DNA of 64,000 bases from Candidatus Kapaibacterium sp. (GTDB lineage: Bacteria; Bacteroidota; Ignavibacteria; Kapaibacteriales; Kapaibacteriaceae): positions 1,793 through 65,792 of the forward strand of contig VFFB01000001.1 in the NCBI GenBank assembly GCA_018882585.1, written 5' to 3'. Every line of letters begins with the position of its first letter. Position 1 is the stretch's first letter. Shown here piece after piece: positions 2,766 to 48,729 of this stretch. A program made the position numbers and the translations under genes. The notes below the pieces were generated by a model. The model ran no database searches. It was given only the letters and a program-made list of their open reading frames with translations, and had not been told where the DNA came from.

Positions 2766-5700
2766 ATGGACCGACACTTGCTGCGGATCGACGCCCTGCG
2801 ACGGCAGACGATCCCGCGCATCGAGGCTGCACCGCGCGAGCTCCTTGATGTGGTAACACGCCCCGATCGCCACGTGGTGTCGCGTCGCCGTGCCCTTGGT
2901 ATCGCCGGAGCACTTTCGGTGACGGCTGCCCCGCTGGCCCGCGCCATGAGCAGCATCTTCCGACAAGACTGCACGATGATCCGCCGCGGCCGCGCCATCG
3001 TCTTCCTCGTTGCCAACGTCGAACGCTGGGTGATCGACCCGGACATGTTCTCGGGCGATCCACGCCTGGAGGTCGACCGGAGCGAAGACTCGATCGCAAT
3101 CTCCCTTCGCGGCGCCCTGTATCCGGGGACCAACCTTCCGGCCGATCTGACGTGTCGCATTGGTACTGCGGGACGTTGGACGGCGACGTTCGAACGAGAT
3201 GGTTTCACGTCGCCCCCTGTTGACATGGTGGAGTGGTTGCTTGACGCGGCCGTCGTTGCAATACCTGCGCGGCAGGCTGTAAGCATTCGCTGCACCGAGG
3301 CATTGCTGCATGTCACAACGAACGATGTGCGGTTCCGGCCGTCGTGGACGCTGCACCTTGCCGGCACCACAACGATGCAGACCGGACAACTGCGGCTTGC
3401 ATCAAACGGCATCGACGTGGCACTTCCTGCACGGCAGCGTTCCACGATGTTCTCGAAGAAACCGGCTAAACGCTCCGTCGTCCGTGTTGCCCGCGACGGC
3501 CACGCATGGACGATCCCGCTGTCGCTGCAGGGCCTGCCCGCGTGGAAGCTTGGCATTGCCGACGATGCCTTCGACAGCTTGAGCATCGAATGCAGCGACG
3601 ACGGACGCGCAGCGTTTGCCCTTGAAGGTAGCCGCGACGGTGGAGTAGCCTTTGTCCACCGACACGTTTCGTCGGCCATACGTCTGCGCAACGTCCGCTA
3701 TGCATGGTCACGCGGCGACAATGGTCTGCACGAGGCCCTGGTTGCCCGCTACAGCAACGCATCGGAGTGGTTGCACTTCGACGGCATCAACATCGAGATC
3801 GGTGACCGCTCCGAGATCCCGCCGCTCGAGATCACGAGCGTTAATGGCGAAGTCACCCGCATGAACATCGCTCCGGGCATGCTGCGCTACAGTGTTCCTG
3901 TCGATGGCGCCATCACCGAGCCTACGTCCATGCCCTCGGGCTCGCAGCTTGCGTTCATCACGGCTGCGGTTGCCACCAAGGCTCTGCCCAAAGCCCATTT
4001 CCACATGGCTGCCGTGCAGATCGATGCCCAGGCAGGCATCATCAAGCAGATCGAGACAACAAAGAAGCTGCCAACAGGTAAACCTCGCTCCGTCAATGTC
4101 CGCAAGAGTCTTGGCGTGCTAAAACCCGGTGCTGTAGCACTCGCGGGAAATCCTACCATCACCGTGATCCGTCCCGAAGACCTGATGGTCCTGACCTTCG
4201 AGTTCATGGGCATCACGCTGAACAAAGCCGCGGGCACCTTCACAGCCGGTGGTAACGCCAAGCTGATCGTGCATTTCCAGCCACAGCATATCGCCGAGCG
4301 GGCCTTCTTCACCACGCAGGAGAAGCCCAATACCGACGAGATCAGATCGCCGTCGAATCCGGCACAGGCAAAAAAGAATCTTCCGCAAGGGGCAACGGAC
4401 GAACCGTTGCTGGACCCGCCGATCGACGCGGTGATGGCCCACGGCTCGCGCCTGGTACTGCGCGTTCCTTCGGGATATACAGGCTTCCTTCGCGTGACGC
4501 CGCCGCCCGACGCCGATCCCTTGGTGCCGTCCAAGATGCTGCTGGATTGGTCTGCCTTCACGATGCACGTTTCGCCGTCGGCAAAGCCGCCTTCGACGGG
4601 ACTTGTCTTCGGCATGCTGTCGGGCGCTTTCACCACGAAGTACACGGCCTCGTTCGCCGACAAGGGTCTTAACACCAAGCCCGTACGCAGCGTCGGCACC
4701 AAGGGCGCAACCTTCACGCGTGGCGTCAGCAAGCGGTCGTACAAGGCCCCTTCCGTGACCCTGAATGTCGAGGGGGAACGGGCACCGCTCACGAATTACA
4801 TCAAGGCACAGATCGACACGCAGCCCGACATCATGGCTGCCGTTCCTTCGCCCTGGATGCAAGAGATCGTGGCTGCCGCCAACCAGAAGCCGCCGATCCG
4901 CGAACCGCTGGCAGACGAGACGGCCATTGAGTATCCGTACCGTCTGATCATGTCGCCCAACAAGTATGCCGGCTGGGCACATACACAGGCGCCGGCCTGG
5001 GGCAAGGACCTTGCCGAGAATGTCACGCGCCGTGTCGAACTGTGGCACACACGTCTTGGCGTCAAACACAGCGACGGTCGCGTGAGCGAAGAGGCCGCCT
5101 ACCTGCGGACGATGCGGGCCATCTGGACGCCCGATATCAACACGCAGCGAACGCTGGACGCCAAGTACATGGAGCGGCCGTTCCGTACGTCGCTCAATCG
5201 TCGTGACCGCTGGGAGCTGGTACGTCTGATGTCGGACTATGCCATGGCCACCAAGACGGCCCCCATGGAAGTACGCCGGTTTATGATGTCGGCGCTTGGC
5301 GCCTGGGCAGATATGACGGGTGTGTGGGATCCGCTGGGCGAAGATGGCCTTGATGTGGAACAGTGGATCCAGCGAGGTGCCCAGGGTCGGGACCACTTTG
5401 TACGCATTTGCTATAAGGGCTATCTGTTCCCCTTCGGACATCGGGCGACGCTTGTGAAGGAGACCGAGCGGAAGTTCCGGCGGACGCCGCGTGGCGATAT
5501 GGCTGCCTATCTGCTGCAGCGGCTGTATATCATCCTGCGGCAGCCCCTTCGGGAATTTCCGGCCGACGGCTTGCAAGGCCAGAAGTATCAGGGTCGCGAC
5601 TTCCCCTTCCGCAGCGTCGTTATCACGACCAAGACAACACCGAACCTGAACCTTCCGGTCAAGCTGCATCCAAGTCTCTCGCCCAACTCCTTCTGGCCGC

Positions 5701-7901
5701 AGTTCAGCACGTCGGCCGGCGGCACTCAGGACGTGCAGTGGGCATGCGTGGGAACAGACTGGGATGGCAACGAGACGCAGTTCTCGACGCCGCTTGCCTT
5801 TGTGGCAAATACAGATGCTACCAACGACGCAAACCTTGCCTCGTTTATCAACGGCGATTACCAGACCAAGGCCGACAACAAAGCTCGTCGAGCCGTTGCC
5901 ATGTCGGGTCAGCAGATCGCCTTTGCTCCGTCGGTCAAACGCGGCGACACGGCTCTGCCCGTGACGGTCTTGACGCTCAACGCACACTACAGCGATACGG
6001 TACCGGCAAACACCGTGCGGTTTTTTCCGCGCATGGAAAAGGCTGCGGCACGCATCGAAAAGGTCGACGAGCTGCTTGGCACACAACTGCCGCGTGACGT
6101 TTCGTTCGCATCGCAGTTTCTGGATTATGCCTTCGACGCCGGCAGCGAGGTCAAGAAGGCCGGTCAGGCCGTCAATACCGCCAACGTGCGCAACCCAAGT
6201 CAGATCTTCCTGAAGCTGCTTTCGACGGCCGACATGGACTTCGGCTCTAGCTCGGACAAGTCGGGCGGCCTGGCGGCTCCCAGCATGCAGATCGCAGGTC
6301 TGTCCCGACTCACGGGCCCCATGCCGGGCTCGATCAGCGGCGCCGTCAACTCGCTGGAAGACATCGCCAACAATGCTGCTGCCGCGGGCTCCTTCGATCC
6401 GATGGAGTACTTCGGCTCGCTCCTCAGCACCAAGATCCTTGGCGATATCACGCTGAAAGACGTGCTGAGTTTTGTGTCGGATATTCTGTCGAATGCCGAC
6501 AAGATGCCTGGTCTTGAGCGCAAGGACGAATTCGGCATGGCCGAGACGCAACAGGCGCTCAAGGACTTTACCAGTGAGGTCAAGACGCAGGTCCAGAGCT
6601 TCTCTAACGACGTCGCCCAGGACGTTGTGGACGCAAAGAAGGACTTGATGGACGAAGCTGACAAGGTCAAGGCCGAGATCGAGTCCTACATCAGCGCCGG
6701 CAAGCAGGCTGCCGAACATGAGATCAAGGCGTGGAAGAAAGCCATCGAGGATAAGCTTGGCGCACTCAAGTCAGAGGTCGACAAGGCCATCAAACCGCTG
6801 AAGGATGCGGGCAATGAGGCGTACAAGAAGTACGAGGAGGCCCAAGGCTACCTGAACTCCATCGCCAAGGGCGTCCAGCTTGTCTACGAGTGGCAAACCA
6901 AGATCACGTCCAGTCCGGGCAACATCCTGATGCCGATGCCGGGCAAGGATGCCGTTCTTGCGCTCAAGACGGAGATGGTCAAAAAGATCGACCTCTCTCC
7001 GCCTGTCGTCAAGGTCTTCGGCTCGCTCACCAACTTCGTCATCAACCTGATCGGCGACGGAGCAGCCAAGTTCCTTGTCATCAAGTTCAACTACATCAAG
7101 GTCTCGGCAATTGTCGGACAAAAGCCGAGCATCGACCCCAACATCGACGACGTCGAGTTTGCCGGCGCGTTGTCCTTCGTCAACAAACTCCGCGACCTGA
7201 TTCCCAAAGGGGGCTCGGGCAGCGCCGGCGGCGTTGGCTTCTCGTTCGAATTCGACGTCAAGCCGTCGGGCATCACCGCCGCGCTCACGATTGGTCTGCC
7301 CGCCGTAACCGTCGGCGTCTTCTCGCTGCAGAACATCTCGTTCCTGATGAAGGTGACCATTCCGTTCGACGGACGTCCCTTCGCCGCGTACTTCGCCTTC
7401 TGCACCAAGGACAATCCCTTCCGGCTTACGATCATGGTCTTTGGGGGCGGCGGTTTCTTCGGCATCGAGGTCACGCCGTCCGGCGTGCGCATGCTTGAAG
7501 CTGCCTTCGAGTTCGGCGGCAACTTCTCGTTCAACTGCGGCGTCGCCTCGGGCGGCGCCTCGGTCATGGCCGGCATCTACTATAAGCTGGAGACAAAGAA
7601 CATCGACGGCAAGGACGTGCAGCAGTCGGAACTCACCGGCTACTTCCGTCTGCAGGGCAACCTTAGCGTGCTGGGCCTGATCCGCGTCAACCTGCTGTTC
7701 GAGCTCAAACTAACCTGGTTGAGCACCGGCAAGGTCTTTGGCACGGCCACCGTCGAAGTCGAGATCGAAGTGCTGTTCCTGTCATTCAGCGTGGGCGTCA
7801 CCGTCGAGCGTCAGCTCAAGGGCAGCGACGGCGACCCGACGTTCAAGGACATGTTGCCGCAGCCGGCGCTGTGGCTTGAGTATTGCGACAGTTTTGCCTA
7901 A
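2766..7901 (+). CDS. Giant hypothetical protein (1711 aa) with no recognisable catalytic motif. Its C-terminus has a coiled-coil, apolipoprotein-like helical region followed by a Gly-rich amphipathic beta-strand module.
   Basis: Strong SD GGAGGA lies 4 nt before the ATG. The 5.1-kb frame is uninterrupted, with host-like codon usage and GC3 bias. An internal twin-arginine-like motif SRRRALGIAGALSVTAAPLARA sits about 40 aa from the N-terminus. The C-terminal approximately 470 aa split into two parts. First come heptad-like K/E/A-rich helices (KDLMDEADKVKAEIESYISAGKQAAEHEIKAWKKAIEDKLGALKSEVDKAIKPL). Then come alternating hydrophobic beta patterns (GFSFEFDV, FRLTIMVFGGGGFFGIEVTP, VEVEIEVLFLSFSVGVTVE). 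Confidence 0.7.
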   Translation: MDRHLLRIDALRRQTIPRIEAAPRELLDVVTRPDRHVVSRRRALGIAGALSVTAAPLARAMSSIFRQDCTMIRRGRAIVFLVANVERWVIDPDMFSGDPRLEVDRSEDSIAISLRGALYPGTNLPADLTCRIGTAGRWTATFERDGFTSPPVDMVEWLLDAAVVAIPARQAVSIRCTEALLHVTTNDVRFRPSWTLHLAGTTTMQTGQLRLASNGIDVALPARQRSTMFSKKPAKRSVVRVARDGHAWTIPLSLQGLPAWKLGIADDAFDSLSIECSDDGRAAFALEGSRDGGVAFVHRHVSSAIRLRNVRYAWSRGDNGLHEALVARYSNASEWLHFDGINIEIGDRSEIPPLEITSVNGEVTRMNIAPGMLRYSVPVDGAITEPTSMPSGSQLAFITAAVATKALPKAHFHMAAVQIDAQAGIIKQIETTKKLPTGKPRSVNVRKSLGVLKPGAVALAGNPTITVIRPEDLMVLTFEFMGITLNKAAGTFTAGGNAKLIVHFQPQHIAERAFFTTQEKPNTDEIRSPSNPAQAKKNLPQGATDEPLLDPPIDAVMAHGSRLVLRVPSGYTGFLRVTPPPDADPLVPSKMLLDWSAFTMHVSPSAKPPSTGLVFGMLSGAFTTKYTASFADKGLNTKPVRSVGTKGATFTRGVSKRSYKAPSVTLNVEGERAPLTNYIKAQIDTQPDIMAAVPSPWMQEIVAAANQKPPIREPLADETAIEYPYRLIMSPNKYAGWAHTQAPAWGKDLAENVTRRVELWHTRLGVKHSDGRVSEEAAYLRTMRAIWTPDINTQRTLDAKYMERPFRTSLNRRDRWELVRLMSDYAMATKTAPMEVRRFMMSALGAWADMTGVWDPLGEDGLDVEQWIQRGAQGRDHFVRICYKGYLFPFGHRATLVKETERKFRRTPRGDMAAYLLQRLYIILRQPLREFPADGLQGQKYQGRDFPFRSVVITTKTTPNLNLPVKLHPSLSPNSFWPQFSTSAGGTQDVQWACVGTDWDGNETQFSTPLAFVANTDATNDANLASFINGDYQTKADNKARRAVAMSGQQIAFAPSVKRGDTALPVTVLTLNAHYSDTVPANTVRFFPRMEKAAARIEKVDELLGTQLPRDVSFASQFLDYAFDAGSEVKKAGQAVNTANVRNPSQIFLKLLSTADMDFGSSSDKSGGLAAPSMQIAGLSRLTGPMPGSISGAVNSLEDIANNAAAAGSFDPMEYFGSLLSTKILGDITLKDVLSFVSDILSNADKMPGLERKDEFGMAETQQALKDFTSEVKTQVQSFSNDVAQDVVDAKKDLMDEADKVKAEIESYISAGKQAAEHEIKAWKKAIEDKLGALKSEVDKAIKPLKDAGNEAYKKYEEAQGYLNSIAKGVQLVYEWQTKITSSPGNILMPMPGKDAVLALKTEMVKKIDLSPPVVKVFGSLTNFVINLIGDGAAKFLVIKFNYIKVSAIVGQKPSIDPNIDDVEFAGALSFVNKLRDLIPKGGSGSAGGVGFSFEFDVKPSGITAALTIGLPAVTVGVFSLQNISFLMKVTIPFDGRPFAAYFAFCTKDNPFRLTIMVFGGGGFFGIEVTPSGVRMLEAAFEFGGNFSFNCGVASGGASVMAGIYYKLETKNIDGKDVQQSELTGYFRLQGNLSVLGLIRVNLLFELKLTWLSTGKVFGTATVEVEIEVLFLSFSVGVTVERQLKGSDGDPTFKDMLPQPALWLEYCDSFA

Positions 7902-7915
7902 GGACGGAGACCCCG

Positions 7916-17578: not shown

Positions 17579-18616
17579 ATGGCCGAGCGACGAAATCCGA
17601 TGACGAATCAGGGCAAAGGCGACGACGATGTCGACGTCTCGCTGCGTCCGTCATCCTTCGACGACTTCACTGGCCAGGCCAAAATCGTCGAGAACCTCAA
17701 GATCTTCATTGCTGCTGCACGCGGCCGCGGCGAAGCGCTGGACCACGTCCTGCTGACCGGTCCGCCGGGACTTGGCAAGACGACGCTGAGCTTCATCATC
17801 GCCCGCGAGATGGGCGCCCAGATCAAGATCACCTCGGGCCCCGTCCTTGAAAAGCCGGGCGACCTGGCAGGTCTGCTGACAAGTCTGGACTCGGGCGACA
17901 TCCTGTTCATCGATGAGATCCACCGTCTGTCGCCCGTGGTCGAAGAATACCTGTATTCGGCCATGGAGGACTTCCGGCTGGACATCATGATCGACTCTGG
18001 TCCGTCGGCCCGGTCCATCCAGCTGGCCCTGCCCCGCTTCACCCTTGTTGGCGCTACGACGCGGCAGGGGTTGCTCACAGCCCCCTTACGATCCCGCTTT
18101 GGTGTGGTGAACCGGCTGGAGTATTACGAGCCCGAGGAGTTGCAGCGTGTGGTGACGCGCTCTGCCGCATTACTTGACGCACCGATCGACGATGACGGTG
18201 CGGCCGAGATCGCGCGCCGCAGCCGGGGCACGCCGCGCATAGCCAACCGGCTGCTGCGGCGCACACGCGACTTTGCCGACGTCAAGGGTCGCGGTGTGAT
18301 CACGCGCGACATCGCGCGCGTCGCCTTGGCGGCACTCGAAGTCGACGAATTCGGTCTTGACGACATGGACGCCCGCATTCTGTCGGCCGTGATCGACAAG
18401 TTCCAGGGTGGTCCTGTGGGCATCTCGACCATTGCCGTTGCCGTAGGCGAAGATGCCGGCACCCTTGAAGAGGTCTATGAGCCCTTCCTGATCCAGCAGG
18501 GGTTTCTGCAGCGCACGCCGCGCGGACGCGTGGCAACACCGGCCGCCTATCGGCACCTTGGCGTGACACGTCCGGACGACCGCATGGGCCTGTTTGGCGA
18601 GGCCGACACACATTGA
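17579..18616 (+). CDS. ruvB: Holliday junction branch migration helicase RuvB.
   Basis: Walker [10 protein letters not shown], Walker [11 protein letters not shown], sensor motifs and a winged-helix C-terminus. I chose ATG 17579, directly after the upstream stop. The ORF-track 5' extension from 17306 overlaps the preceding gene. Confidence 0.9.
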
Positions 18617-18639
18617 CAATTTTGCATCAAGGATACCCT

Positions 18640-19479
18640 ATGACAACCACATCACGCATCACGGGCATTGTAGCTATGAGCCTTGCCCTTGTCGTTGCCA
18701 TCATCATCATTTCGGGCACCGGAACGGCGCCTGCCGTGGCCATGACGGGCACCAGCAAACTTGGCACGCCCTCGCACGTGCAGCTCACGGTCAAGGACCT
18801 CATCACGTCGATGGCCTGGTACGCCAAGATCGGCTTCTCGCCCATCACCGGCCCGGTGAACAAGCCCGATTCCATCCTGTACATGAGCGACGGACAGCTG
18901 GTACTTGCGCTGGTCAAGGGCGATGCTCCGTCACCACTGCTTGTATTGCGGTCATCGAACCTTCGGGCTCTGCGCGACTCGCTCGACGAGCTCGAGATCT
19001 CGTCTGGCTTCAAGCTTCGCGGCCCCACCTACTCCGAGCTCCAGGTGGCATCACCTTCGGGCGTCCTGATGAGCATCCGTCTTTCCACCGAAGAAGACTC
19101 CATTGCCTTTGCGCAGGCGATCAACCCCATTTGCGGTCCACTCGCCGAACTCAGCGTCGCCACCATGTCCCTGCCCAACGAGCGCACCTTCTGGGAACTC
19201 GTCGGATGGAAGCAGGTCGATGCCAACGATACGCCCTATCCCTTCGCCGTCATGTCTGACGGACGTCTGAAGATTGGCATCCACCAGGGAATTGACCTGC
19301 CCGGCATTGCCATCACGTACTTCAGTGCCGACGCAGCCCAACGCGTCGAGCGTCTGAAGGCCATGGGCATGACCTTCGAGCCTGACATGGTGTCGGACGC
19401 CATGAAGAACGACAACGCCGTCCTCAAGTCACCCGACGGCCAACTCGTCTTCGTGTTCAAGGACCCAAAGGCGAAGTGA
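18640..19479 (+). CDS. Tandem-domain VOC (glyoxalase/bleomycin-resistance/dioxygenase) family protein with an N-terminal signal or anchor.
   Basis: Two repeats of the VOC pattern (HVQLTVKDLITSMAWYAKIGF... and a second half LKIGIHQG...). Hydrophobic N-terminus ITGIVAMSLALVVAIIIISG. Confidence 0.55.
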   Translation: MTTTSRITGIVAMSLALVVAIIIISGTGTAPAVAMTGTSKLGTPSHVQLTVKDLITSMAWYAKIGFSPITGPVNKPDSILYMSDGQLVLALVKGDAPSPLLVLRSSNLRALRDSLDELEISSGFKLRGPTYSELQVASPSGVLMSIRLSTEEDSIAFAQAINPICGPLAELSVATMSLPNERTFWELVGWKQVDANDTPYPFAVMSDGRLKIGIHQGIDLPGIAITYFSADAAQRVERLKAMGMTFEPDMVSDAMKNDNAVLKSPDGQLVFVFKDPKAK

Positions 19480-19517
19480 TTCGGGTATCGCATACGGCGT
19501 TCCTCGGGCATCATGTA

Positions 19518-19543
19518 CCCCGGGCTGGCGCTGGCGCCCGGGG
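19518..19543. terminator. GC hairpin (8-bp stem CCCCGGGC / GCCCGGGG) between convergent genes; possible bidirectional terminator.
   Basis: Perfect inverted repeat seen in the sequence, in the 134-nt gap between the VOC gene (+) and the ATPase gene (-). No T-tract follows, so it is weak as a canonical rho-independent terminator. Confidence 0.3.
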
Positions 19544-19613
19544 CTAGTGTCATTACGCCCCTTCAGGGATCACGAAGGGTTGCCGTAAGGATGATCGCGG
19601 ACCTTCGTTCTAC

Positions 19614-20789
19614 CTAGAACCTCGCAGCAACTTCCAGCAGCAGATCATGCAGCGGGATGGCCTCGATGTTTTCTCGGATTCTGTAGCGTTGAGTTCCCGG
19701 ATAGACGACCATGGATCGCTGAGGCGTCAAATCTTTGATTGCCTCATGGAATCCTCGTCGTGGGGTCGGCACCGAGTTACGCTTCACCTCGATCGCCCAT
19801 TGTTCTCCATCGCTGAATCGGAGCAGCACATCAACCTCTGCACCGGCAGAGGTGCGGTAGAATGATATCTCGACGTTTCCTCTGCCGACGGCACTCAGCT
19901 GCTGAACGACGAATCCCTCCCAGCTGCTGCCGATCGAAGGATGCCCCGTTAGCTCGTCGTACGTTCTAATGCCCAGCAGCGCATGCAGTAGGCCACTATC
20001 TCGTATGTACACCTTGGGGCGCTTGGTCAGCCGTTTGCCGATGTTGACATGCCACGGCTGAACGACGCGGATCAGCAGAAGCTGCTCCAGCAGGTTAACG
20101 TAGGCCTGGATCGTTTTGAAATCCACGCCGATGCTTCTTGCCAGCATCGACGCGTTCAGGACCTGCCCTTGCAGGTGGGCCAGCATGGTCCACAGCTGTC
20201 GCATCTGCTCAGTCGAGCGGCGCGGCGCAAACTGAGGCACCTCGCGCTCGAGGTACGTCCTGATGAAGTCCATTCGCCAGGCGTGACTCGACTCGGTCGT
20301 TGTCGCAAGCACCGAGTCCGGATAGCCACCCCGCAGCCACAGCGTCGTGGTCACCTCCGGCGTTATCTCCCCCATTTCGAGTAGACAGAGCGGATGCAGT
20401 TCGAGATAGCTGACACGCCCGGCCAATGATTCAGCAGACCGGTCAAGAAGTTCGATCGACGCCGACCCCAGCAAGAGATACATTCCGCCTCGAATGCCGC
20501 GGCGGCGTCCCTCGTCGATCCGTCCGCGCAGAATCGGGAACAAGTCCGGCACCCGATGTATCTCATCCAGGACCAACAGCGATCCGATACAATCACTGAG
20601 ATAGGCCTCCGGGTCCGACAGCTTTGCCCGGTCGATCGGGCTTTCAAGGTCAAGGTACATCCCACCGCGCTCCTCCGCGATGGCTCGGGCCAACGTCGTC
20701 TTGCCAACCTGCCGCGAACCAAGCAGCACCACGGCCGGTACGTTCTCGAGGCGTGATGTCAACTGTGTAGCAATCAAACGATCTTTCAT
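19614..20789 (-). CDS. AAA+ ATPase of the DUF4143/COG1373 family.
   Basis: Walker A GSRQVGKTT and Walker B LLVLDEIH, with a C-terminal DUF4143-like region. Length 391 aa. Confidence 0.8.
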   Translation of the reverse strand: MKDRLIATQLTSRLENVPAVVLLGSRQVGKTTLARAIAEERGGMYLDLESPIDRAKLSDPEAYLSDCIGSLLVLDEIHRVPDLFPILRGRIDEGRRRGIRGGMYLLLGSASIELLDRSAESLAGRVSYLELHPLCLLEMGEITPEVTTTLWLRGGYPDSVLATTTESSHAWRMDFIRTYLEREVPQFAPRRSTEQMRQLWTMLAHLQGQVLNASMLARSIGVDFKTIQAYVNLLEQLLLIRVVQPWHVNIGKRLTKRPKVYIRDSGLLHALLGIRTYDELTGHPSIGSSWEGFVVQQLSAVGRGNVEISFYRTSAGAEVDVLLRFSDGEQWAIEVKRNSVPTPRRGFHEAIKDLTPQRSMVVYPGTQRYRIRENIEAIPLHDLLLEVAARF

Positions 20790-20854
20790 CCTTGTAATTT
20801 AGGAACCAGATTCCTGTTTTACAAGGATGCAGGCATCGGTGTTCGTTAGGTAGG

Positions 20855-20893
20855 GGCGACCCAACGTGGTCGCCCGACCCAACGCGGTCGCCC
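20855..20893. repeat. Two tandem near-identical hairpin units: GGCGACC-caacgt-GGTCGCC, then CGACC-caacgc-GGTCG.
   Basis: Direct repeat of an 18-20-nt palindromic unit, seen in the sequence. It lies at the boundary between the host-GC ATPase gene and the low-GC islet. Confidence 0.45.
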
Positions 20894-21032
20894 TATCGGT
20901 TCCGGCATGGAAAGCCAGACAACTTCATGGCTGTGGTGTTTGCAAAGTCCTTTAGCGTCATATATTTTAGCTCGACGTCGGGGGTAGGGATGTCTTCCCC
21001 AAAAATTTTTCAATGTATGTAGGGAGTTTAGG

Positions 21033-21191
21033 ATGAACAGGTTTCTCGTTCTCGTTGCGCCTCTGGCGCTCTTCGTTGCGTGTTCAGTGAACAGCCTGGC
21101 GCCGACCAGCATGTCGCCGTTCGACAACTCACAGTTGGGCGGGGGGGGTACTAGAAGCCATCCCATGGAGACAATCTGCGAACGCGCTTGA
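21033..21191 (+). CDS. Short lipoprotein-like ORF (52 aa) containing a G8 homopolymer; possibly a remnant.
   Basis: SD-like AGGGAG lies 10 nt upstream. MNRFLVLVAPLALFVACS is a lipoprotein signal with a Cys lipobox. A G8 run at 21141-21148 is in-frame (LGGGGT). The ORF is only 52 aa. Confidence 0.25.
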   Translation: MNRFLVLVAPLALFVACSVNSLAPTSMSPFDNSQLGGGGTRSHPMETICERA

Positions 21192-21285
21192 TTCTATTGG
21201 CGGCTATCACAATCGTGCGCTGGCTTATCTCGTCGGGCAAGGGTACTACCATAGCGGCACCACTAGAGATACACTTGCGAAGGGG

Positions 21286-21999
21286 TTGGCGATGTTTGCT
21301 ATTGATTTTTCAGATACCGACACAATTGATATTGGCCAGCTAGGTTCACTTCAGGCATCTGCCCGGGTTCTGCTTGATTACATCGACTCAGCATTGGCAA
21401 ACTCCACACCAAGCAGCAGGATCAGTTCATACACAGAATCGCAGGAGATGCGAGACGTGTTGGTACGACTAGCAAGTGGAATATCGCGATCCGACTTCCT
21501 CGTTTTTGCTGACTCGTTGACGATGGCCGTGAATAACTCGAACGTCAACGAGGGAGATAAGCGCCGAGCCCTACCCGCTATTAGCGTGGCATATCGATCA
21601 TGGGTGTATTGGTCATGCGTACTTGAACCTGTGAAGGCTGCAAGCGTCCGCTCGACCAGTCCCGTAGTCAGCGGTCTCGACAGTACTCGGGCGCAGCGAC
21701 TACTCTCACTTGTCAACGCTGATTTAGCTTCAGGTTTGATAGGGGGTGCATCGGCGGGTCTCGCGGAAGGCGCAGCAGGCGCCGTCATTGGGGCGTTTGC
21801 TGGTGGTCTGGGAGCTGGGCCTGGTTTCGTCGCAGGTTTTACCCACGGTTTCATGAGTGGAATGCTTGGCGGAGCAGTTGGGGGGTCAGCTGCCGAGGCG
21901 ACGAAGCCACCATCTGACTCACCCCAACCACGCTCGGACGAAACGTGCAAATGCAATTGTTGTAAAGGTGGAAAGCAGCAAGGAGGAAACAAACCATGA
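21286..21999 (+). CDS. Glycine-zipper, bacteriocin-like hypothetical protein (237 aa) with a CxCxCC tail. It sits in a low-GC islet.
   Basis: GC is about 50% against a genome average near 65%. The C-terminal segment GLIGGASAGLAEGAAGAVIGAFAGGLGAGPGFVAGFTHGFMSGMLGGAVGG is a GxxxG zipper. The protein ends CKCNCCKGGKQQGGNKP. It is translationally coupled (ATGA) to a downstream 2-TM ORF. Confidence 0.5.
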   Translation: MAMFAIDFSDTDTIDIGQLGSLQASARVLLDYIDSALANSTPSSRISSYTESQEMRDVLVRLASGISRSDFLVFADSLTMAVNNSNVNEGDKRRALPAISVAYRSWVYWSCVLEPVKAASVRSTSPVVSGLDSTRAQRLLSLVNADLASGLIGGASAGLAEGAAGAVIGAFAGGLGAGPGFVAGFTHGFMSGMLGGAVGGSAAEATKPPSDSPQPRSDETCKCNCCKGGKQQGGNKP

Positions 22000-22244
22000 G
22001 TATCGAGACACCAACTTCCAATCCCGATCCTGTGTCCCAGCGAACATCGCAGCAACGTCAGCGATTGATCGTACGTGTCGTGGCGATTTTATGCGCTGTA
22101 GCGAGCATGTCGATTGTGTGTATTGCATTTACGACGAGCTGGATCGCAGATTTGCCAATTGTCTTGAAGGTCTTCATGTTACTCTGCCTTTTCGCCCTTG
22201 CCCTATATGGGCGTGGAGTTGCTCGCAAACTCGCTCGCAGATAA
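21996..22244 (+). CDS. Small 2-TM membrane protein (82 aa); putative immunity partner.
   Basis: ATGA overlap with the upstream gene. Two hydrophobic helices (LIVRVVAILCAVASMSIVCIAF and LPIVLKVFMLLCLFALALY). Same low-GC composition. Confidence 0.45.
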   Translation: MSIETPTSNPDPVSQRTSQQRQRLIVRVVAILCAVASMSIVCIAFTTSWIADLPIVLKVFMLLCLFALALYGRGVARKLARR

Positions 22245-22295
22245 CATGTCGTTTCCTTGATTCAAGCTCAGCTTCACCATCGTAAGATTCGGATC

Positions 22296-22338
22296 TCGAG
22301 GCCTCGGCTAAGCAACAACCGAGGCCTCGATTTGCTGG
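22296..22338 (+). terminator. Rho-independent terminator-like hairpin: perfect 12-bp stem TCGAGGCCTCGG / CCGAGGCCTCGA with an 11-nt loop, followed by ATTTGCTGG.
   Basis: Perfect inverted repeat seen 52 nt after the 2-TM ORF stop, with a T-containing tail. Confidence 0.45.
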
Positions 22339-22485
22339 TAAACGAAAGCGAAGAATGCTGCCAGGCCTTCGTGCTCAACTGATACAACTCTCGTGCGTAA
22401 GCCACGGGCATAGGCTATGTGTTCCCGCCCCGCCGGTCCGTACCTTTGCAGTCGATCAATCCACTGCAACCAGCATCAGCCGACT

Positions 22486-23952
22486 ATGTCCAAAGAGATA
22501 ACCTCCCGCGCCGACGATTATTCGCAATGGTACATCGACCTTGTCCGTAAGGCCGGTCTTGCCGACTATTCGGCCGTGAAAGGCTGCATGGTGATCAAGC
22601 CGTATGGCTTCTCCATCTGGGAGAACATGCGCGACACACTGGATAAGATGTTCAAGGACACAGGGCACACGAATGCCTACTTCCCGCTGTTCATTCCCAA
22701 GAGCTTCCTCAGCAAAGAGGCTGCACACGTCGAGGGCTTCGCCAAGGAATGCGCCGTGGTCACGCACTACCGTCTGAAGAATGCCGACGATGGCTCGGGC
22801 GTGGTGGTGGATCCCGAGGCCAAACTCGAAGAGGAACTCATCGTACGTCCGACGTCGGAGACGATCATCTGGAATACGTACCGCGACTGGATACAGTCGT
22901 ACCGCGACCTGCCCCTGCTGATCAACCAGTGGGCCAACGTTGTACGCTGGGAGATGCGTACGCGCCTATTCCTGCGTACCGCGGAATTCCTGTGGCAGGA
23001 AGGCCATACGGCACATGCCACACGCGAAGAGGCCATCGAAGAGACACGCAAGATGCTCGACGTGTATGCAACGTTTGCCGAAGAGTGGATGGCCATGCCC
23101 GTGATCAAGGGCGTGAAGACGCCGAACGAGCGCTTTGCCGGAGCAGAAGACACGTACTGCATCGAAGCCCTGATGCAGGACGGCAAGGCCCTGCAAGCTG
23201 GTACATCGCACTTCCTTGGACAGAACTTCGCCAAGGCCTTCGACGTCAAGTTCAGCACGAACGATAATCAACTCGATTACGTCTGGGCAACGTCATGGGG
23301 TGTGTCGACACGTCTGATGGGCGCCCTTGTGATGGCCCACTCCGACGATGAAGGACTGATCATTCCGCCCAAGCTGGCACCAATCCACGTGGTGATCGTG
23401 CCCATTCCCAAGCCGCTGCCCGAACTTGACGAAGCAGCCACGAGCATCGCCACGGAACTGCGCGCCCGCGGAATCCGCGTCAAGATCGACACCGACGACC
23501 AGAATCGCCCCGGCTACAAGTTTGCCGAGTACGAGAAGATCGGCATCCCCGTCCGTCTGGGGCTTGGCGCCCGCGACCTTGCCAACGGTACGATCGAAGT
23601 TGCACGACGCGACAACAAAACCAAAGAGTCTGTGCCGCTGGCAGGACTTGCCGACCACGTCGAAGCCCTGCTTGCCGACATCCAGCGCAGTATGTTCGAG
23701 CGTGCAAAAACGTACCGCGACCAGCATATCACGTCTGTTGACTCATGGGACGAATTCGTCCGTGTGCTTGATGAACAAGGGGGCTTTGTGGCCGCTCATT
23801 GGGATGGCACAACCGAGACCGAAGTGGCCATCAAGGAAGCGACGAAGGCAACCATCCGCTGTATCCCTCTCGACAATCCTCAGGAAGACGGCGTATGCGT
23901 GATGACGGGCAAGCCAAGCTCGCAGCGCGTGCTCTTTGCACGTGCCTATTGA
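22486..23952 (+). CDS. proS: Prolyl-tRNA synthetase, archaeal/eukaryote-like class II form.
   Basis: The [30 protein letters not shown]-terminus is typical of the short ProRS form of about 490 aa. Class II motifs and an anticodon-binding domain are present. I chose the ATG at 22486. The ORF-track extension from 22417 adds a non-conserved leader. Confidence 0.9.
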
Positions 23953-30221: not shown

Positions 30222-31438
30222 TCAACCCGGATACCATCGGCGATCACGGCGCCCGCGGCGCGTCGCGCCGGATACACGGCTGCCAGTGTGGCCAGCAACA
30301 ACGCCGTCACGGCCGTCTCCAGCACATCCGCACCGTGCAGCTCCACGGGCAGGGCCGGCACCAGATAGCCGGCAGACATGTCGAAGGCGACCCATGAGAA
30401 TGCCTTCTGTCCAAGCACCAGGGCAACGCCGATAGCAGTACCGATGACGACGCTGACAGCTCCGATCATCAGTCCCTGTAACCGGAAGATGCGAGCAACA
30501 TCGGCATCCGTGACGCCAAGCGTCTTCAGGACGGCGATGTCCCGTCGCTTCTCGCTTACACCCAGCGTCAACGTCACAAGGATGTTGAATGCGGCCACGA
30601 CGATGATAAGCGCAAGGACAATGAACGAACCTACGCGCTCAAGCTGCATCGTGTCGAACAAGCCTTTGTTCAGGTCCTGCCATGTCAGCACCTGCACGGA
30701 ACCTCCAATGTCTTGCTGCAGCACCTTCGCCACGGCGACAGCTTCGAGGGGATGTGCAATGGTCATGTCAATGGCGTTCACATCGGCACGGCGCGACAGG
30801 CGGTGCACAAGTGCGTCCGACGTCATCACCATTGCATTGTCGATCTCGCGCATGCTGTTCGCCTGGAAGACGCCACGGACGATGGCACGGCGTCCCGACG
30901 GCGGCATGAGCGTCGTCAGTGCCTGCTCGATCATCTCGGGCGAGAGCACCATGACGGTATCGCCAATGAACGTCTGCAGTTTTTCGACAAGGCCGATACC
31001 GATGACCAGCCCCGGTGCCTCATCCGGCTGCGCCGGGTGAACAATGAATCGACCGGCGATCATGCGCGAAGCGACACCCTCTGGAACAGTCGCCGGCGGC
31101 AGCCCCTGGGCCTGTGCCACGGCCGTGATCCCGTCACGCTGCAACACTACGCGCGTCGTCGCCACGGGGATGGACGTACCGGCGCGACGCGACATCGCAA
31201 GGATGCGCGAGGTATCGTCCAGCACCGCCCCCTTTGACGGAACGATGCGCAGATGGGGTCCGAAACCGATCATGACGTCGTTGGCAACGGAGCGGAAACC
31301 GTTGAAGATCGACATCACGACGATCAGGGCGGCCGTGCCGATGGCAATGCCGATCATCGACAGCAGACCAATGATGGAGATGAAGTTCCAGCGTCGTGGC
31401 CGAAGGTATCGAAGAGCGATCCGAGACGAAGGTTTCAT
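30218..31438 (-). CDS. ABC transporter permease, FtsX/LolC-E family.
   Basis: N-terminal TM, a large periplasmic loop and a C-terminal FtsX-like 3-TM bundle (ALIIVVAAFNILVTLTLGVSEKRRDIAVLKTLG). Length 406 aa. Confidence 0.75.
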   Translation of the reverse strand: MKPSSRIALRYLRPRRWNFISIIGLLSMIGIAIGTAALIVVMSIFNGFRSVANDVMIGFGPHLRIVPSKGAVLDDTSRILAMSRRAGTSIPVATTRVVLQRDGITAVAQAQGLPPATVPEGVASRMIAGRFIVHPAQPDEAPGLVIGIGLVEKLQTFIGDTVMVLSPEMIEQALTTLMPPSGRRAIVRGVFQANSMREIDNAMVMTSDALVHRLSRRADVNAIDMTIAHPLEAVAVAKVLQQDIGGSVQVLTWQDLNKGLFDTMQLERVGSFIVLALIIVVAAFNILVTLTLGVSEKRRDIAVLKTLGVTDADVARIFRLQGLMIGAVSVVIGTAIGVALVLGQKAFSWVAFDMSAGYLVPALPVELHGADVLETAVTALLLATLAAVYPARRAAGAVIADGIRVD

Positions 31439-33576
31439 CGGCGGCGACGTGACGATTCAAGCAATGCATGCTGGACACGTACGACATCCTTGGAGGCGCG
31501 CACGCGTTGATACGTTCCATCGGCTGTAAGCATCCGTGCCTTCACGTTGTCATGCAGGTAGGCATCGAGAATGTCCTTGAGCTGCTTCTTCACGGCCTGG
31601 TCATAGACGGGGAACAGCAACTCGACCCGACGGTGCATGTTCCTTGTCATCCAGTCGGCACTCGAAATGAAAACTGCGTCGTCGCCGCCATTGCGGAAGC
31701 GGAAGATGCGGCTGTGCTCGAGGAATCTGTCCAAGACACTGCGTACGGTGATATTGTCGCTGACGCCTGCAATGCCGGGACGCAGCGTGCAGACGCCGCG
31801 TACGATGAGTTCGACCCTGACGCCGGCTTGTGATGCCTTGTAGAGTGCGCGGATGATATCGGGATCGATCAGGGCATTCATCTTGGCAACGATATGTCCC
31901 TTCGTTCCGGATCGCTGATGCTCGATCTCGCGCTCGATCAGGCCCAGAAGGTTTTCGCGAAGATTCACCGGCGCCACACCGATGTGTTGCCAGCCGCGAT
32001 GCTTTGAATAGCCGGTCAGCAGATTGAACAGGTGAACGAAGTCACGCTCGAATTCCTGACGGGCCGTGAAGATGCCGACGTCGGTATACAGTCGCGATGT
32101 CGAAAGGTTGTAGTTGCCTGTGGCCACGTGCGCATACGTCAGCACGTTGCGGCCCTCCTTGCGGATCACAAGGCAGACCTTGCAGTGGGTCTTAAGGCCT
32201 ACAAGTCCGTAGACGACGTGGACGCCGGCCTGTTCGAGAGCCCGGGCCCAGGCGATGTTCGTTTCCTCGTCGAATCGTGCTTTGAGTTCAACAAAGGCAG
32301 TAACATTCTTGCCATTCTCGGCGGCCTCGCGCAGTGCGTCGATCACGGGCGACTTACCGCCGGCGCGATACAGCGTGATCTTGATGGCCAGTACCTGAGG
32401 GTCGCGAGCGGCCGACTTCAGAAACGTTACCACCGAATTCGTGAACGAATCGAAGGGGTGGTGAACCAGGACGTCACCTTCCTTCAGCACGTCGAAGATG
32501 TTGGCGCCGTCCTGCGTCAGTTCCGTTGGCGTGCGCGATACCAGCGGCGGGTCCTTCAGACGGCGCTTGTCGAGTTGCATCAGAACCAGGAAGTCCTGCA
32601 GGTTCATCGGCACGTCTGTCTGATAGACGTCGGCCGTTTCAAGGTCGAGCGATCGTGCCAGGAACTGCGTCAGAAAGCGCGGCACGTCGGGACCGATCTC
32701 CAGTCGGACAGCATCGGTGCCCCAGCGTCGTTGGCGGATACCTTCGGCCACGGCCGTGATCAGGTCGCCCGCTTCGTCGTCGGCAATTTCGACGTCGGCA
32801 TCACGCGTCACGCGAAACACATGGGCTTCGCGGAAGTCCAGCCCCGGAAAGAGCACACCGGCATTGGCGCGGATCACGTCGTCGAGCAGGACGTAATGGT
32901 GTCCGCCGCTGCGCGGCAGACGCATCAGCCGTGGCAGTGCGGACGGCAGCTGCAGCACGGCGATCTTCGTCTCCTTCTGTCCGTCCACATGATCTGTCAG
33001 CACAAAGGCGATGTTGATGGATCGGTTCAACAGTCGCGGGAACGGATGGCCCGGGTCGAGCGCCAGCGGCGTTAGCACCGGCATGATGTTGTCGACAAAA
33101 TCCTGGTCGAACTCCTCGCGCTCCTCTGCCGTCAGGTCTTCAAGTCCATGGAAGTGTATCCCCTCTTTCCGCAGCGCCGGTATGAGGTCATGATGGAAGA
33201 TGCGGCTTTGCTCCATGTAAAGCGGCATCAGCCGGGAGCGGATCTCTTTCATCTGCTCGGCAGGCGTCATACCATCGGCCGACAACTCCGTGACGCCGGA
33301 GTAGATCTGCTCCTGCAGTCCGGCCACGCGGATCATGAAGAACTCATCGAGGTTCGTCCCGAAGATGGCCAGGAACTTCAGACGCTCCAGCAGTGGATGC
33401 GTCATGTCTGCCGCTTCTTCGATCACACGCCGGTTGAACTCAATCCATGACAGCTCGCGGTTGAAATAGAGCGACTCGTCGCGCAGATCAAGGGTAGCCT
33501 CGGGGCGCTTTTTTTTCCTCGATTCTTTGTCAGGATGTGATCCGGTGCTAGCTTTTGGCATAATAATCGGTTGCAC
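31435..33576 (-). CDS. ppk: Polyphosphate kinase 1.
   Basis: PPK1 N, head and two PLD-like C-terminal domains. Autophosphorylated-His region context. The 713-aa frame overlaps the downstream permease by 4 nt. Confidence 0.9.
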   Translation of the reverse strand: MQPIIMPKASTGSHPDKESRKKKRPEATLDLRDESLYFNRELSWIEFNRRVIEEAADMTHPLLERLKFLAIFGTNLDEFFMIRVAGLQEQIYSGVTELSADGMTPAEQMKEIRSRLMPLYMEQSRIFHHDLIPALRKEGIHFHGLEDLTAEEREEFDQDFVDNIMPVLTPLALDPGHPFPRLLNRSINIAFVLTDHVDGQKETKIAVLQLPSALPRLMRLPRSGGHHYVLLDDVIRANAGVLFPGLDFREAHVFRVTRDADVEIADDEAGDLITAVAEGIRQRRWGTDAVRLEIGPDVPRFLTQFLARSLDLETADVYQTDVPMNLQDFLVLMQLDKRRLKDPPLVSRTPTELTQDGANIFDVLKEGDVLVHHPFDSFTNSVVTFLKSAARDPQVLAIKITLYRAGGKSPVIDALREAAENGKNVTAFVELKARFDEETNIAWARALEQAGVHVVYGLVGLKTHCKVCLVIRKEGRNVLTYAHVATGNYNLSTSRLYTDVGIFTARQEFERDFVHLFNLLTGYSKHRGWQHIGVAPVNLRENLLGLIEREIEHQRSGTKGHIVAKMNALIDPDIIRALYKASQAGVRVELIVRGVCTLRPGIAGVSDNITVRSVLDRFLEHSRIFRFRNGGDDAVFISSADWMTRNMHRRVELLFPVYDQAVKKQLKDILDAYLHDNVKARMLTADGTYQRVRASKDVVRVQHALLESSRRRR

Positions 33577-41636: not shown

Positions 41637-48729
<7,093 letters not shown>

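Follow-up and report, generated by a model that had tools for sequence, protein, structure and literature searches.

Several described bacterial systems resemble one part or another of a two-gene cassette present in Candidatus Kapaibacterium sp., on a 64,000-nt stretch of contig VFFB01000001.1 (hereafter the window; all coordinates are window positions). The cassette encodes a glycine-zipper protein with the features of a lipoprotein, its gene frame-broken at a run of eight guanines (G8), followed by a small protein with two transmembrane (TM) segments. In the contact-dependent Cdz system of Caulobacter crescentus, the zipper proteins CdzC and CdzD are located at the outer membrane or surface of the producer and are presumed to damage the target membrane, and the same operon encodes CdzI, a small multi-TM inner-membrane immunity protein without homologues (PMC5380434). 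Both points have a counterpart in what we propose for the cassette. However, CdzC and CdzD are ~85 aa long and use type I export with RTX-like signals (PMC5380434), whereas the protein considered here is ~321 aa long and has an additional helical domain besides its lipoprotein signal. Sequence similarity between Cdz and the window cassette is not detectable, and no type I secretion system genes adjoin the latter.

The SitA toxins of myxobacteria are lipoproteins whose immunity gene, SitI, lies directly downstream, in polymorphic and horizontally mobile modules, which is also the layout of the cassette. SitA proteins carry enzymatic C-terminal domains (nucleases, tRNase) and depend on TraA-dependent outer-membrane exchange (PMC5562445), whereas the cassette combines a membrane hairpin with a membrane-protein partner. 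The nap island of Neisseria gonorrhoeae, like the cassette, has been acquired and encodes bacteriocin-like products (NapR and NapC), and the 5′ coding region of napR contains a poly-G run of 6–12 G which varies by isolate, the common allele lacking the export leader (PMC11798529). These are small peptides with double-glycine leaders from a host-adapted pathogen, unlike the large lipoprotein of the uncultivated, Kapabacteria-related environmental lineage described here, to which they have no sequence relationship. Phase-variable surface genes of Campylobacter and Neisseria similarly carry 8–10 G in the 5′ coding region, with a strain-dependent length that sets the frame (PMC8355987, PMC5953494). 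In our case no intact ON allele was seen, and the host is a free-living environmental bacterium, for which such loci are little documented.

Glycine zippers occur in other settings. DUF6861 (PF21724) proteins have their zipper at the N-terminus, ahead of an enzymatic toxin domain, whereas here it is C-terminal and there is no enzymatic domain; in Tde1, glycine zippers are required for target-cell entry (PMC10240207). The zipper outer-membrane lipoproteins SlyB, Pcp and YfgH differ from the protein considered here, which has no PF05433 match, an extra ~150-aa helical domain and an obligatory membrane partner, and is rare and mobile. Each component of the cassette has a precedent, be it lipoprotein toxins, zipper toxins with membrane immunity or poly-G control of an export signal; the family itself is unnamed, and it is new to find them combined in a lineage that is environmental and uncultivated.

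We propose, as a reading with about an even chance of being right, that the cassette encodes a lipoprotein membrane toxin and its immunity protein, with export gated by slippage at the poly-G run. The statements made below on the structure of the cassette are, taken together, very probably correct. If the proposal holds, Bacteroidota-related bacteria would possess a new family of lipoprotein-borne zipper membrane toxins with dedicated membrane immunity proteins, such toxins would require no special secretion system, and an uncultivated freshwater lineage would have an antagonism gene under contingency-type homopolymer control. Homopolymer contingency control is known mostly from host-adapted pathogens.

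One lipoprotein gene split at a G tract

The initial annotation of this locus described a complete gene of 237 codons for the zipper protein, preceded by a separate lipoprotein-like mini-ORF (open reading frame) with a G8 tract. The 52-aa ORF at 21033–21191 does contain a lipoprotein-type signal (MNRFLVLVAPLALFVAC) and the G8 run (21141–21148, + strand), and the 237-aa ORF at 21286–21999 does contain the glycine zipper and cysteine tail reported for it, ending in ...DETCKCNCCKGGKQQGGNKP. However, neither is a gene in itself: on comparison of frames and relatives they form one lipoprotein gene of ~321 aa, frame-broken at G8, with the mini-ORF as its 5′ end, one frame off. Read upstream from the 237-aa ORF, the frame stays open as far as 21088, without a single ATG, GTG or TTG ahead of 21286, and changing the tract to G7 or G10 in silico unites both frames in a single ORF (321 or 322 aa). 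In the G8 state the signal-peptide frame terminates after 52 codons, leaving the signal out of frame with the mature protein. The single-gene architecture follows from this open, start-less frame and the G7/G10 fusion, together with the family alignment and the selection on 48 codons described below.

The 5′ part of the gene (21033–21140, +) has a Shine-Dalgarno-like GGGAG (21022–21026, +) 6 nt ahead of its ATG at 21033, and GGAG is retained at the same place in L001, a contig type carrying a close relative of the cassette, despite differing surroundings. The encoded signal peptide (MNRFLVLVAPLALFVA) has the basic n-region, the hydrophobic core and the lipobox ending in Cys17 (21081–21083) that are typical of lipoprotein precursors, and is followed by a short linker. 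The tract lies between this export signal and the mature part. The body of the gene (21148–21999, +), in the +1 frame, consists of a helical domain of ~150 aa, a zipper hairpin of ~70 aa and a basic tail containing the cysteine cluster CKCNCC (21946–21963, +), and runs to the stop codon.

The glycine-zipper helical hairpin (21682–21900, +) corresponds to residues 217–289 of the repaired protein and has a G-A-G-P-G turn. AlphaFold2 (AF2) run with an 18-sequence alignment predicts an all-helical protein (predicted local distance difference test score, pLDDT, 71; predicted template modelling score, pTM, 0.71), with a confident helical domain at residues ~45–198 and zipper helices at 217–255 and 261–289 (block pLDDT 66–91); the single-sequence model was unusable (pLDDT 38). 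The only Pfam similarity found is that of the zipper segment to DUF6861, which a preprint describes as the N-terminal glycine-zipper membrane domain of polymorphic toxins (bioRxiv 10.1101/2022.08.23.504947). For the window protein this match (E 8e-4) scores 19.3 bits, under the gathering cut-off of 28, and covers only profile positions 31–81 of 194; nine of the 18 family members match at E≤1, the best at 1.1e-7.

The gene has been under purifying selection. Compared with L001, the lipoprotein body has a ratio of non-synonymous to synonymous substitution rates (dN/dS) of 0.175, from 66 synonymous and 42 non-synonymous changes (dS 0.40), while its off-frames give values above 1.3. A ratio this low at a dS of 0.40 indicates that the gene was constrained for most of the window/L001 divergence. 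The same holds for the 48 codons between the tract and an ATG at 21292 (8 synonymous, 4 non-synonymous; dN/dS 0.14, P=0.003 under neutrality), which are untranslatable in the present G8 state. Opposite the Gly-rich part of the gene runs a 225-aa antisense ORF (21378–22055, −), which most likely results from composition, since only the sense frame shows purifying selection.

A rare family with a constant membrane partner

An exhaustive HMMER search found 19 matches among 1.84 billion cluster representatives, most of them 290–330 aa long and aligning with the repaired protein nearly end to end. Twelve members have their own signal peptide and a lipobox Cys in the same alignment column, which is also that of Cys17 in the window. 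The Cys is followed by the conserved motifs N.YD.IG.FHN..L.Y, EK..LL..I.VAYHS..YW and AD..GA and then by the C-terminal zipper. The CKCNCC cluster is common to P0001, the nearest relative (88% amino-acid identity), and to the 46%-identical P0002, while other close members have a K/R-rich tail without Cys. Gene callers fragment the lipoprotein gene into artefactual pieces of 52, 72, 74, 235, 237, 307 and 325 aa, and for this reason the family is invisible to routine annotation.

Other searches added little. No relative was found in the Genome Taxonomy Database (GTDB) genomes, in Joint Genome Institute (JGI) metagenome contigs (searched with protein patterns and one DNA pattern) or in IMG/VR; a word-indexed protein search returned P0001 only, to which the family profile added only P0015. 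NCBIfam, PADLOC and PHROGs gave nothing for either cassette protein except a PHROGs match of the zipper to a tail lysin (0.0028), and the family profile, searched against Protein Data Bank (PDB) sequences, had no match under E 0.06. The idea of a phage lysis or spanin pair was rejected, since gene order and sizes are unsuited to it and PHROGs offers no support. The contexts of family members are mutually unrelated, one lying among transposase fragments and another beside a YoeB toxin-antitoxin pair. As far as these sequence searches reach, the family is rare, unnamed and unannotated, and its position is not syntenic.

The second gene encodes an 82-aa protein (21996–22244, +) with hydrophobic segments at residues 25–43 and 53–71, a putative immunity protein or partner. 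As had been noticed, its ATG overlaps the lipoprotein stop as ATGA, so that the two genes are translationally coupled; a strong Shine-Dalgarno sequence, AAGGAGG, lies at 21980–21986 (+). The arrangement in the relatives also fits the proposed toxin-then-immunity order. A small gene for a 2- or 4-TM protein comes next on the same strand in 8/8 operons examined (window, L001 type, L083, L084, L085, L086, L087 and L090/L091, the last two with short gaps; by lipoprotein, window, L001 type, L083, P0003, P0004, P0005, P0006, P0011 and P0013). Such invariable pairing of a first gene with a small gene after it, in the same operon, is what is expected of a toxin-immunity module, and the overlap is 4 nt in each of the five closest operons. 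Partners have either 62–112 aa with two hydrophobic segments, or more segments in proteins of at least 140 aa (at a contig end) and 157 aa. The 82-aa protein is 90% identical to its L001 counterpart and 27% identical to that of L083, where the lipoproteins share 46%; in this comparison of window and L083, partners thus diverge faster than lipoproteins. The longer partners in L084 (1429–1848) and L085 (3309–3782) look like a tandem-duplicated two-TM unit, and the 62-aa partner in L086 (2280–2468) aligns to residues 82–135 of the L084 partner (36% identity, E 0.002).

The foreign composition, the zipper and the two-TM gene coupled to it are real features, and they could also point to a 237-aa toxin of the class II bacteriocin or microcin type, with a double-glycine leader, an ABC exporter and a separate lipoprotein mini-ORF, as first suggested. 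Such a toxin is nevertheless very improbable. Such bacteriocins are typically <10 kDa, whereas the product here has 321 aa (235 aa in its shortest plausible form) and a signal of the Sec/signal peptidase II type. The 237-aa ORF has no leader and lacks 48 conserved codons of the N-terminus, the homologous proteins are 290–330-aa lipoproteins, and the mini-ORF belongs to the same gene. The flanking genes encode an ATPase, ProRS (prolyl-tRNA synthetase) and a glyoxalase-like protein, not an exporter, and a C39-peptidase ABC exporter was found neither among the immediate neighbours nor among nine large ORFs elsewhere in the partly annotated window.

A non-toxic envelope module, in which a SlyB/YfgH-like zipper lipoprotein of the outer membrane and an inner-membrane partner would serve membrane stabilisation or stress tolerance, would have the same architecture. 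We regard this as distinctly unlikely. Homology to a housekeeping family, of which the initial annotation had warned, was not found: neither the window protein nor the family members match YeaQ/YmgE in Pfam or NCBIfam, no family member matches PF05433, and the window protein matches no Gly-zipper Pfam family at E≤1 (including Gly-zipper_Omp/OmpA/YMGG). Moreover, a housekeeping factor would not be expected to be so extremely rare, patchy and foreign, absent from the locus in the closest genomes, placed in mobile contexts and repeatedly inactivated.

Tract polymorphism and the state of the cassette

The G8 homopolymer is the sole G/C run of ≥7 in the 64 kb, while shuffles predict ~6.6 runs of ≥8. 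The only other homopolymer of ≥7 in the window is a T8 at 33509–33516, near the 5′ end of a polyphosphate kinase ORF (31435–33576, −). Relatives of the cassette show that the tract varies. For the nearest relative the cassette DNA is 86.8% identical and the flanking genes are similar at 84–89%. Ten L001-type contigs from different samples, in which an additional GT and TA on the sides of the tract make G9 the in-frame length, have only 11 other variable columns in 1348 nt. Their tracts, read from consensus contigs, are G8 (n=3), G9 (n=2) and G10 (n=5), in four haplotypes: G8, G10 (five contigs), G9 with a stop and G8 with a stop. The stop, a TAC>TAA change 36 codons past the tract, is present in both G9 contigs (L093, L096) and in L100 (G8). 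P0002 on L083, which has the same CKCNCC tail, lacks a G run and has a signal peptide that shares its frame with the first conserved motif; this gene has a 1-nt deletion after HNHGVAY, unrelated to the tract. In total, intact alleles number 0/12 (the window, ten L001-type contigs and L083). An exact look-up of the window's 82-aa protein gave no record, which leaves the window lineage without a second allele.

On this sequence evidence the tract is hypermutable. The gene of P0005 (L085:2433) has only G6 at the homologous Gly-Gly site; expansion of ordinary GGN GGN codons, confined to the window/L001 lineage, therefore seems to have produced the long tract. Phase-variable loci characteristically have, in the 5′ coding region, a frame-setting homopolymer that varies in length among near-identical genomes; they also have both ON and OFF alleles, and among these 12 alleles those of in-frame length (L093, L096) carry the TAA. 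Pure sequencing error was rejected as a source of the relatives' tract variation, since length is consistent within haplotypes across independent assemblies, e.g. in the five G10 contigs. Programmed ribosomal frameshifting was rejected as well, since the shifts required would be opposite in direction in the two lineages (equivalent to G7 for the window, to G9 for L001) and tract lengths vary by strain.

In the reading that we favour, an in-frame tract (G7 or G10 in the window) would allow the protein to be exported and lipid-anchored in the outer membrane or on the cell surface, where the zipper hairpin would insert into the membrane of neighbouring cells, oligomerise and damage it. In the producer's inner membrane, the two-TM partner would block the zipper toxin. 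Slippage at the G run would uncouple the export signal from the toxin and switch production off, and the window copy would represent the off state. Cdz, SitA with SitI and the poly-G tract of NapR lend support to this reading as precedents. Lipoproteins of Bacteroidetes can carry a surface-export signal, K-(D/E)2 (PMC5080379), and the mature N-terminus of L083, one of the closest relatives, is C-K-D-E, which fits this signal.

Several observations weigh against this proposal. The mature N-terminus of the window protein, C-S-V-N-S, lacks the acidic surface-export motif, and the changes in the signal-peptide part (2 synonymous, 7 non-synonymous) give no sign of purifying selection. For the 82-aa partner, dN/dS is 0.57 from only 14 changes, indistinguishable from neutral (P=0.24). 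That no allele is intact, with TAA in both in-frame G9 contigs and an unrelated deletion in L083, is as compatible with decay or with selection against expression as with a switch. Since tract length is constant within each haplotype, as in the five G10 contigs, rapid switching is not demonstrated. Finally, the G8 of the window could be an assembly miscount of the homopolymer, with the allele being intact only if the true length is G7 or G10.

The state of the alleles could reflect recent, parallel decay of the toxin gene in all lineages sampled, each keeping its immunity as a resistant non-producer, with the G run as the weakest point and only the 82-aa gene still needed. The lesions are of three kinds (tract length, TAA stop and 1-nt deletion), the TAA lies in both contigs of in-frame length and also in the G8 contig L100, and the 82-aa ORF is intact in all contigs, as decay would predict. 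We still think decay rather unlikely, because the body has remained constrained over a dS of 0.40, including the 48 codons that cannot be translated at present. All lesions fall in the first ~85 codons, with none in the remaining 235, and the G run seems to be maintained, being the only long one in a genome where such runs are otherwise avoided.

The internal Met at 21292 lies downstream of every lesion, and the 235-aa ORF that begins there is untouched. This ATG, with AAGGGG 6 nt upstream (21280–21294, +), is a possible start for a leaderless product; the Met is retained in L001 and L083, the gene callers of most contigs start there, and the AAGGGG, or AAGGGC, is kept 6 nt before it in all three CKCNCC-subfamily lineages. 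The working form might therefore be the leaderless 235-aa protein, its zipper in the producer's inner membrane, its basic tail inside and the partner restraining it; the 5′ lipoprotein part would then be vestigial or an alternative isoform. The positive-inside rule places basic tails on the cytoplasmic side, and the K/R-rich tail here suits a cytoplasmic C-terminus. In gonococci, too, the commonest napR allele is without its leader, with a predicted cytoplasmic location (PMC11798529), and the adjacent ATPase is a PADLOC defence candidate. That the leaderless protein is the working form is unlikely in our view, given the purifying selection on the 48 codons upstream of the Met, and given that, outside the CKCNCC subfamily, members lack a Met at this position and their lipoprotein signals are intact; the start at 21292 is itself only predicted. 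Action of such a form in cis, as autolysis or an abortive infection-type collapse of the membrane, is no more probable.

Both forms could also be made, with the tract toggling between an exported, lipid-anchored zipper toxin that would kill neighbouring cells and a leaderless isoform from the internal start that would act on the cell's own membrane, the partner gating both. This we hold to be improbable. Under such a scheme, the leaderless isoform would be autolytic or abortive infection-like, and the gene would found an undescribed family of lipoprotein membrane toxins in Bacteroidota-related lineages.

Whether the tract acts as a switch, as we favour, or marks a lesion, the most intriguing and most testable aspect is that all sampled alleles are off or broken yet the body is under purifying selection. 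The cassette is a natural case in which the cost and benefit of a toxin (producer vs resistant non-producer) could be followed in metagenome time series.

Origin and surroundings of the insertion

The cassette is part of an insertion of ~3 kb (19480–22485; strand not applicable) which also contains an ATPase gene. In the window, the gap between the glyoxalase-like gene (18613–19479) and proS (22486–23952) is 3006 nt. The ProRS of the window is nearest to those of Ca. Kapaibacterium metagenome-assembled genomes (MAGs; 87% identity), and in L003 and L005, the two closest genomes with usable flanks (Ca. Kapaibacterium MAGs; ProRS 87% and 85%), the glyoxalase-like gene is separated from proS by only ~30 nt, with no cassette. 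L004 and L005 are filed as 'Patescibacteria group' and 'Candidatus Didemnitutus', with ProRS 87% and 85% identical to that of the window; L005 also has the glyoxalase-proS synteny, and both are probably Kapabacteria contigs in wrong bins.

A low-GC islet had been reported here, with a fall from about 65% to about 50%. The drop is real, although smaller: mean GC is 60.2% in the window and 53.2% at 20790–22420, with 300-nt minima near 49%. The contrast is sharper at third codon positions, where GC (GC3) is 0.49 and 0.52 in the cassette genes vs 0.72 in proS, 0.70 in the ATPase gene and 0.76 in the glyoxalase-like gene. On contigs of ~50% GC, family genes equal the window cassette in GC content, which fits acquisition from a lower-GC donor. 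The anomalous GC3 and the absence from the locus in the closest genomes, where the glyoxalase-like gene abuts proS, together establish, at the level of sequence composition and synteny, that the cassette was horizontally acquired, as had been suspected.

The ATPase (19614–20789, −) belongs to the AAA_14/DUF4143 type (Pfam AAA_14 1e-21, DUF4143 7.5e-46), has a host-like GC3 and matches the PADLOC candidate defence family PDC-S01 (E 3.3e-96). It counts here only as a neighbour of the cassette within the insertion. In L001-type contigs, unlike the window, the ATPase gene lies downstream of the cassette (L001 1909–3084), and upstream of it (162–240) is a remnant of a second copy with its interior deleted and its two gene ends kept, flanked by duplicated blocks. 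The arrangement suggests either duplication followed by deletion or a mobile unit. The differing position of the ATPase gene, the remnant copy and the duplicated blocks mark the locus as a rearranging variable spot.

An 11-bp inverted repeat, CATCCTTGTAA...TTACAAGGATG (20787–20829, no strand assigned; self-match 20826–20787), spans the ATPase start codon and could be an operator or a structure in the 5′ untranslated region of that gene. It is located inside block 'B', 93 nt long, of which L001 has two copies (218–310 = 3065–3157, 95.7% identical). The hairpin repeats noted at 20855–20893 were recovered as a perfect 8-bp stem, GGGCGACC-N6-GGTCGCCC (20854–20875, +), and a second, imperfect copy of the 18–19-nt unit that reaches 20893. 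A hairpin with such a duplicated unit occurs once in the window vs 0 expected from shuffles; L001 has a single copy of the unit at the equivalent place.

Downstream, the reported terminator was likewise recovered, as a perfect 12-bp stem (22296–22307/22319–22330, +) with an 11-nt loop followed by TTTG. This terminator-like hairpin is kept in L001 and L002 and forms the right edge of the block common to the window and L001 (end 22343). The consensus scanner did not call a terminator at 22296–22333 (loop >8 nt), and an Rfam scan of 20700–22520 gave no match.

A few further observations were made around the locus and elsewhere in the window. The end of contig L083 (1619–1657), ~330 nt past the cassette, resembles the 5′ half of a tRNA and could be a tRNA-adjacent insertion site; ARAGORN called no tRNA on L083, where the contig end cuts the candidate off. 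Right after the glyoxalase-like gene, L001 (1–110) and L002 (105–230) have ~7 tandem copies of a 16-nt unit, GCATCACGTACCCCGC, and the window has only a short related stretch (19480–19530). Two adjacent huge ORFs at 2766–7901 (+) and 7883–12145 (+) encode proteins of 1711 and 1420 aa with no Pfam match at E≤1e-5, and a 1653-aa protein encoded at 41637–46598 (−) has reprolysin-like metallopeptidase, CARDB and Laminin_G_3 domains.

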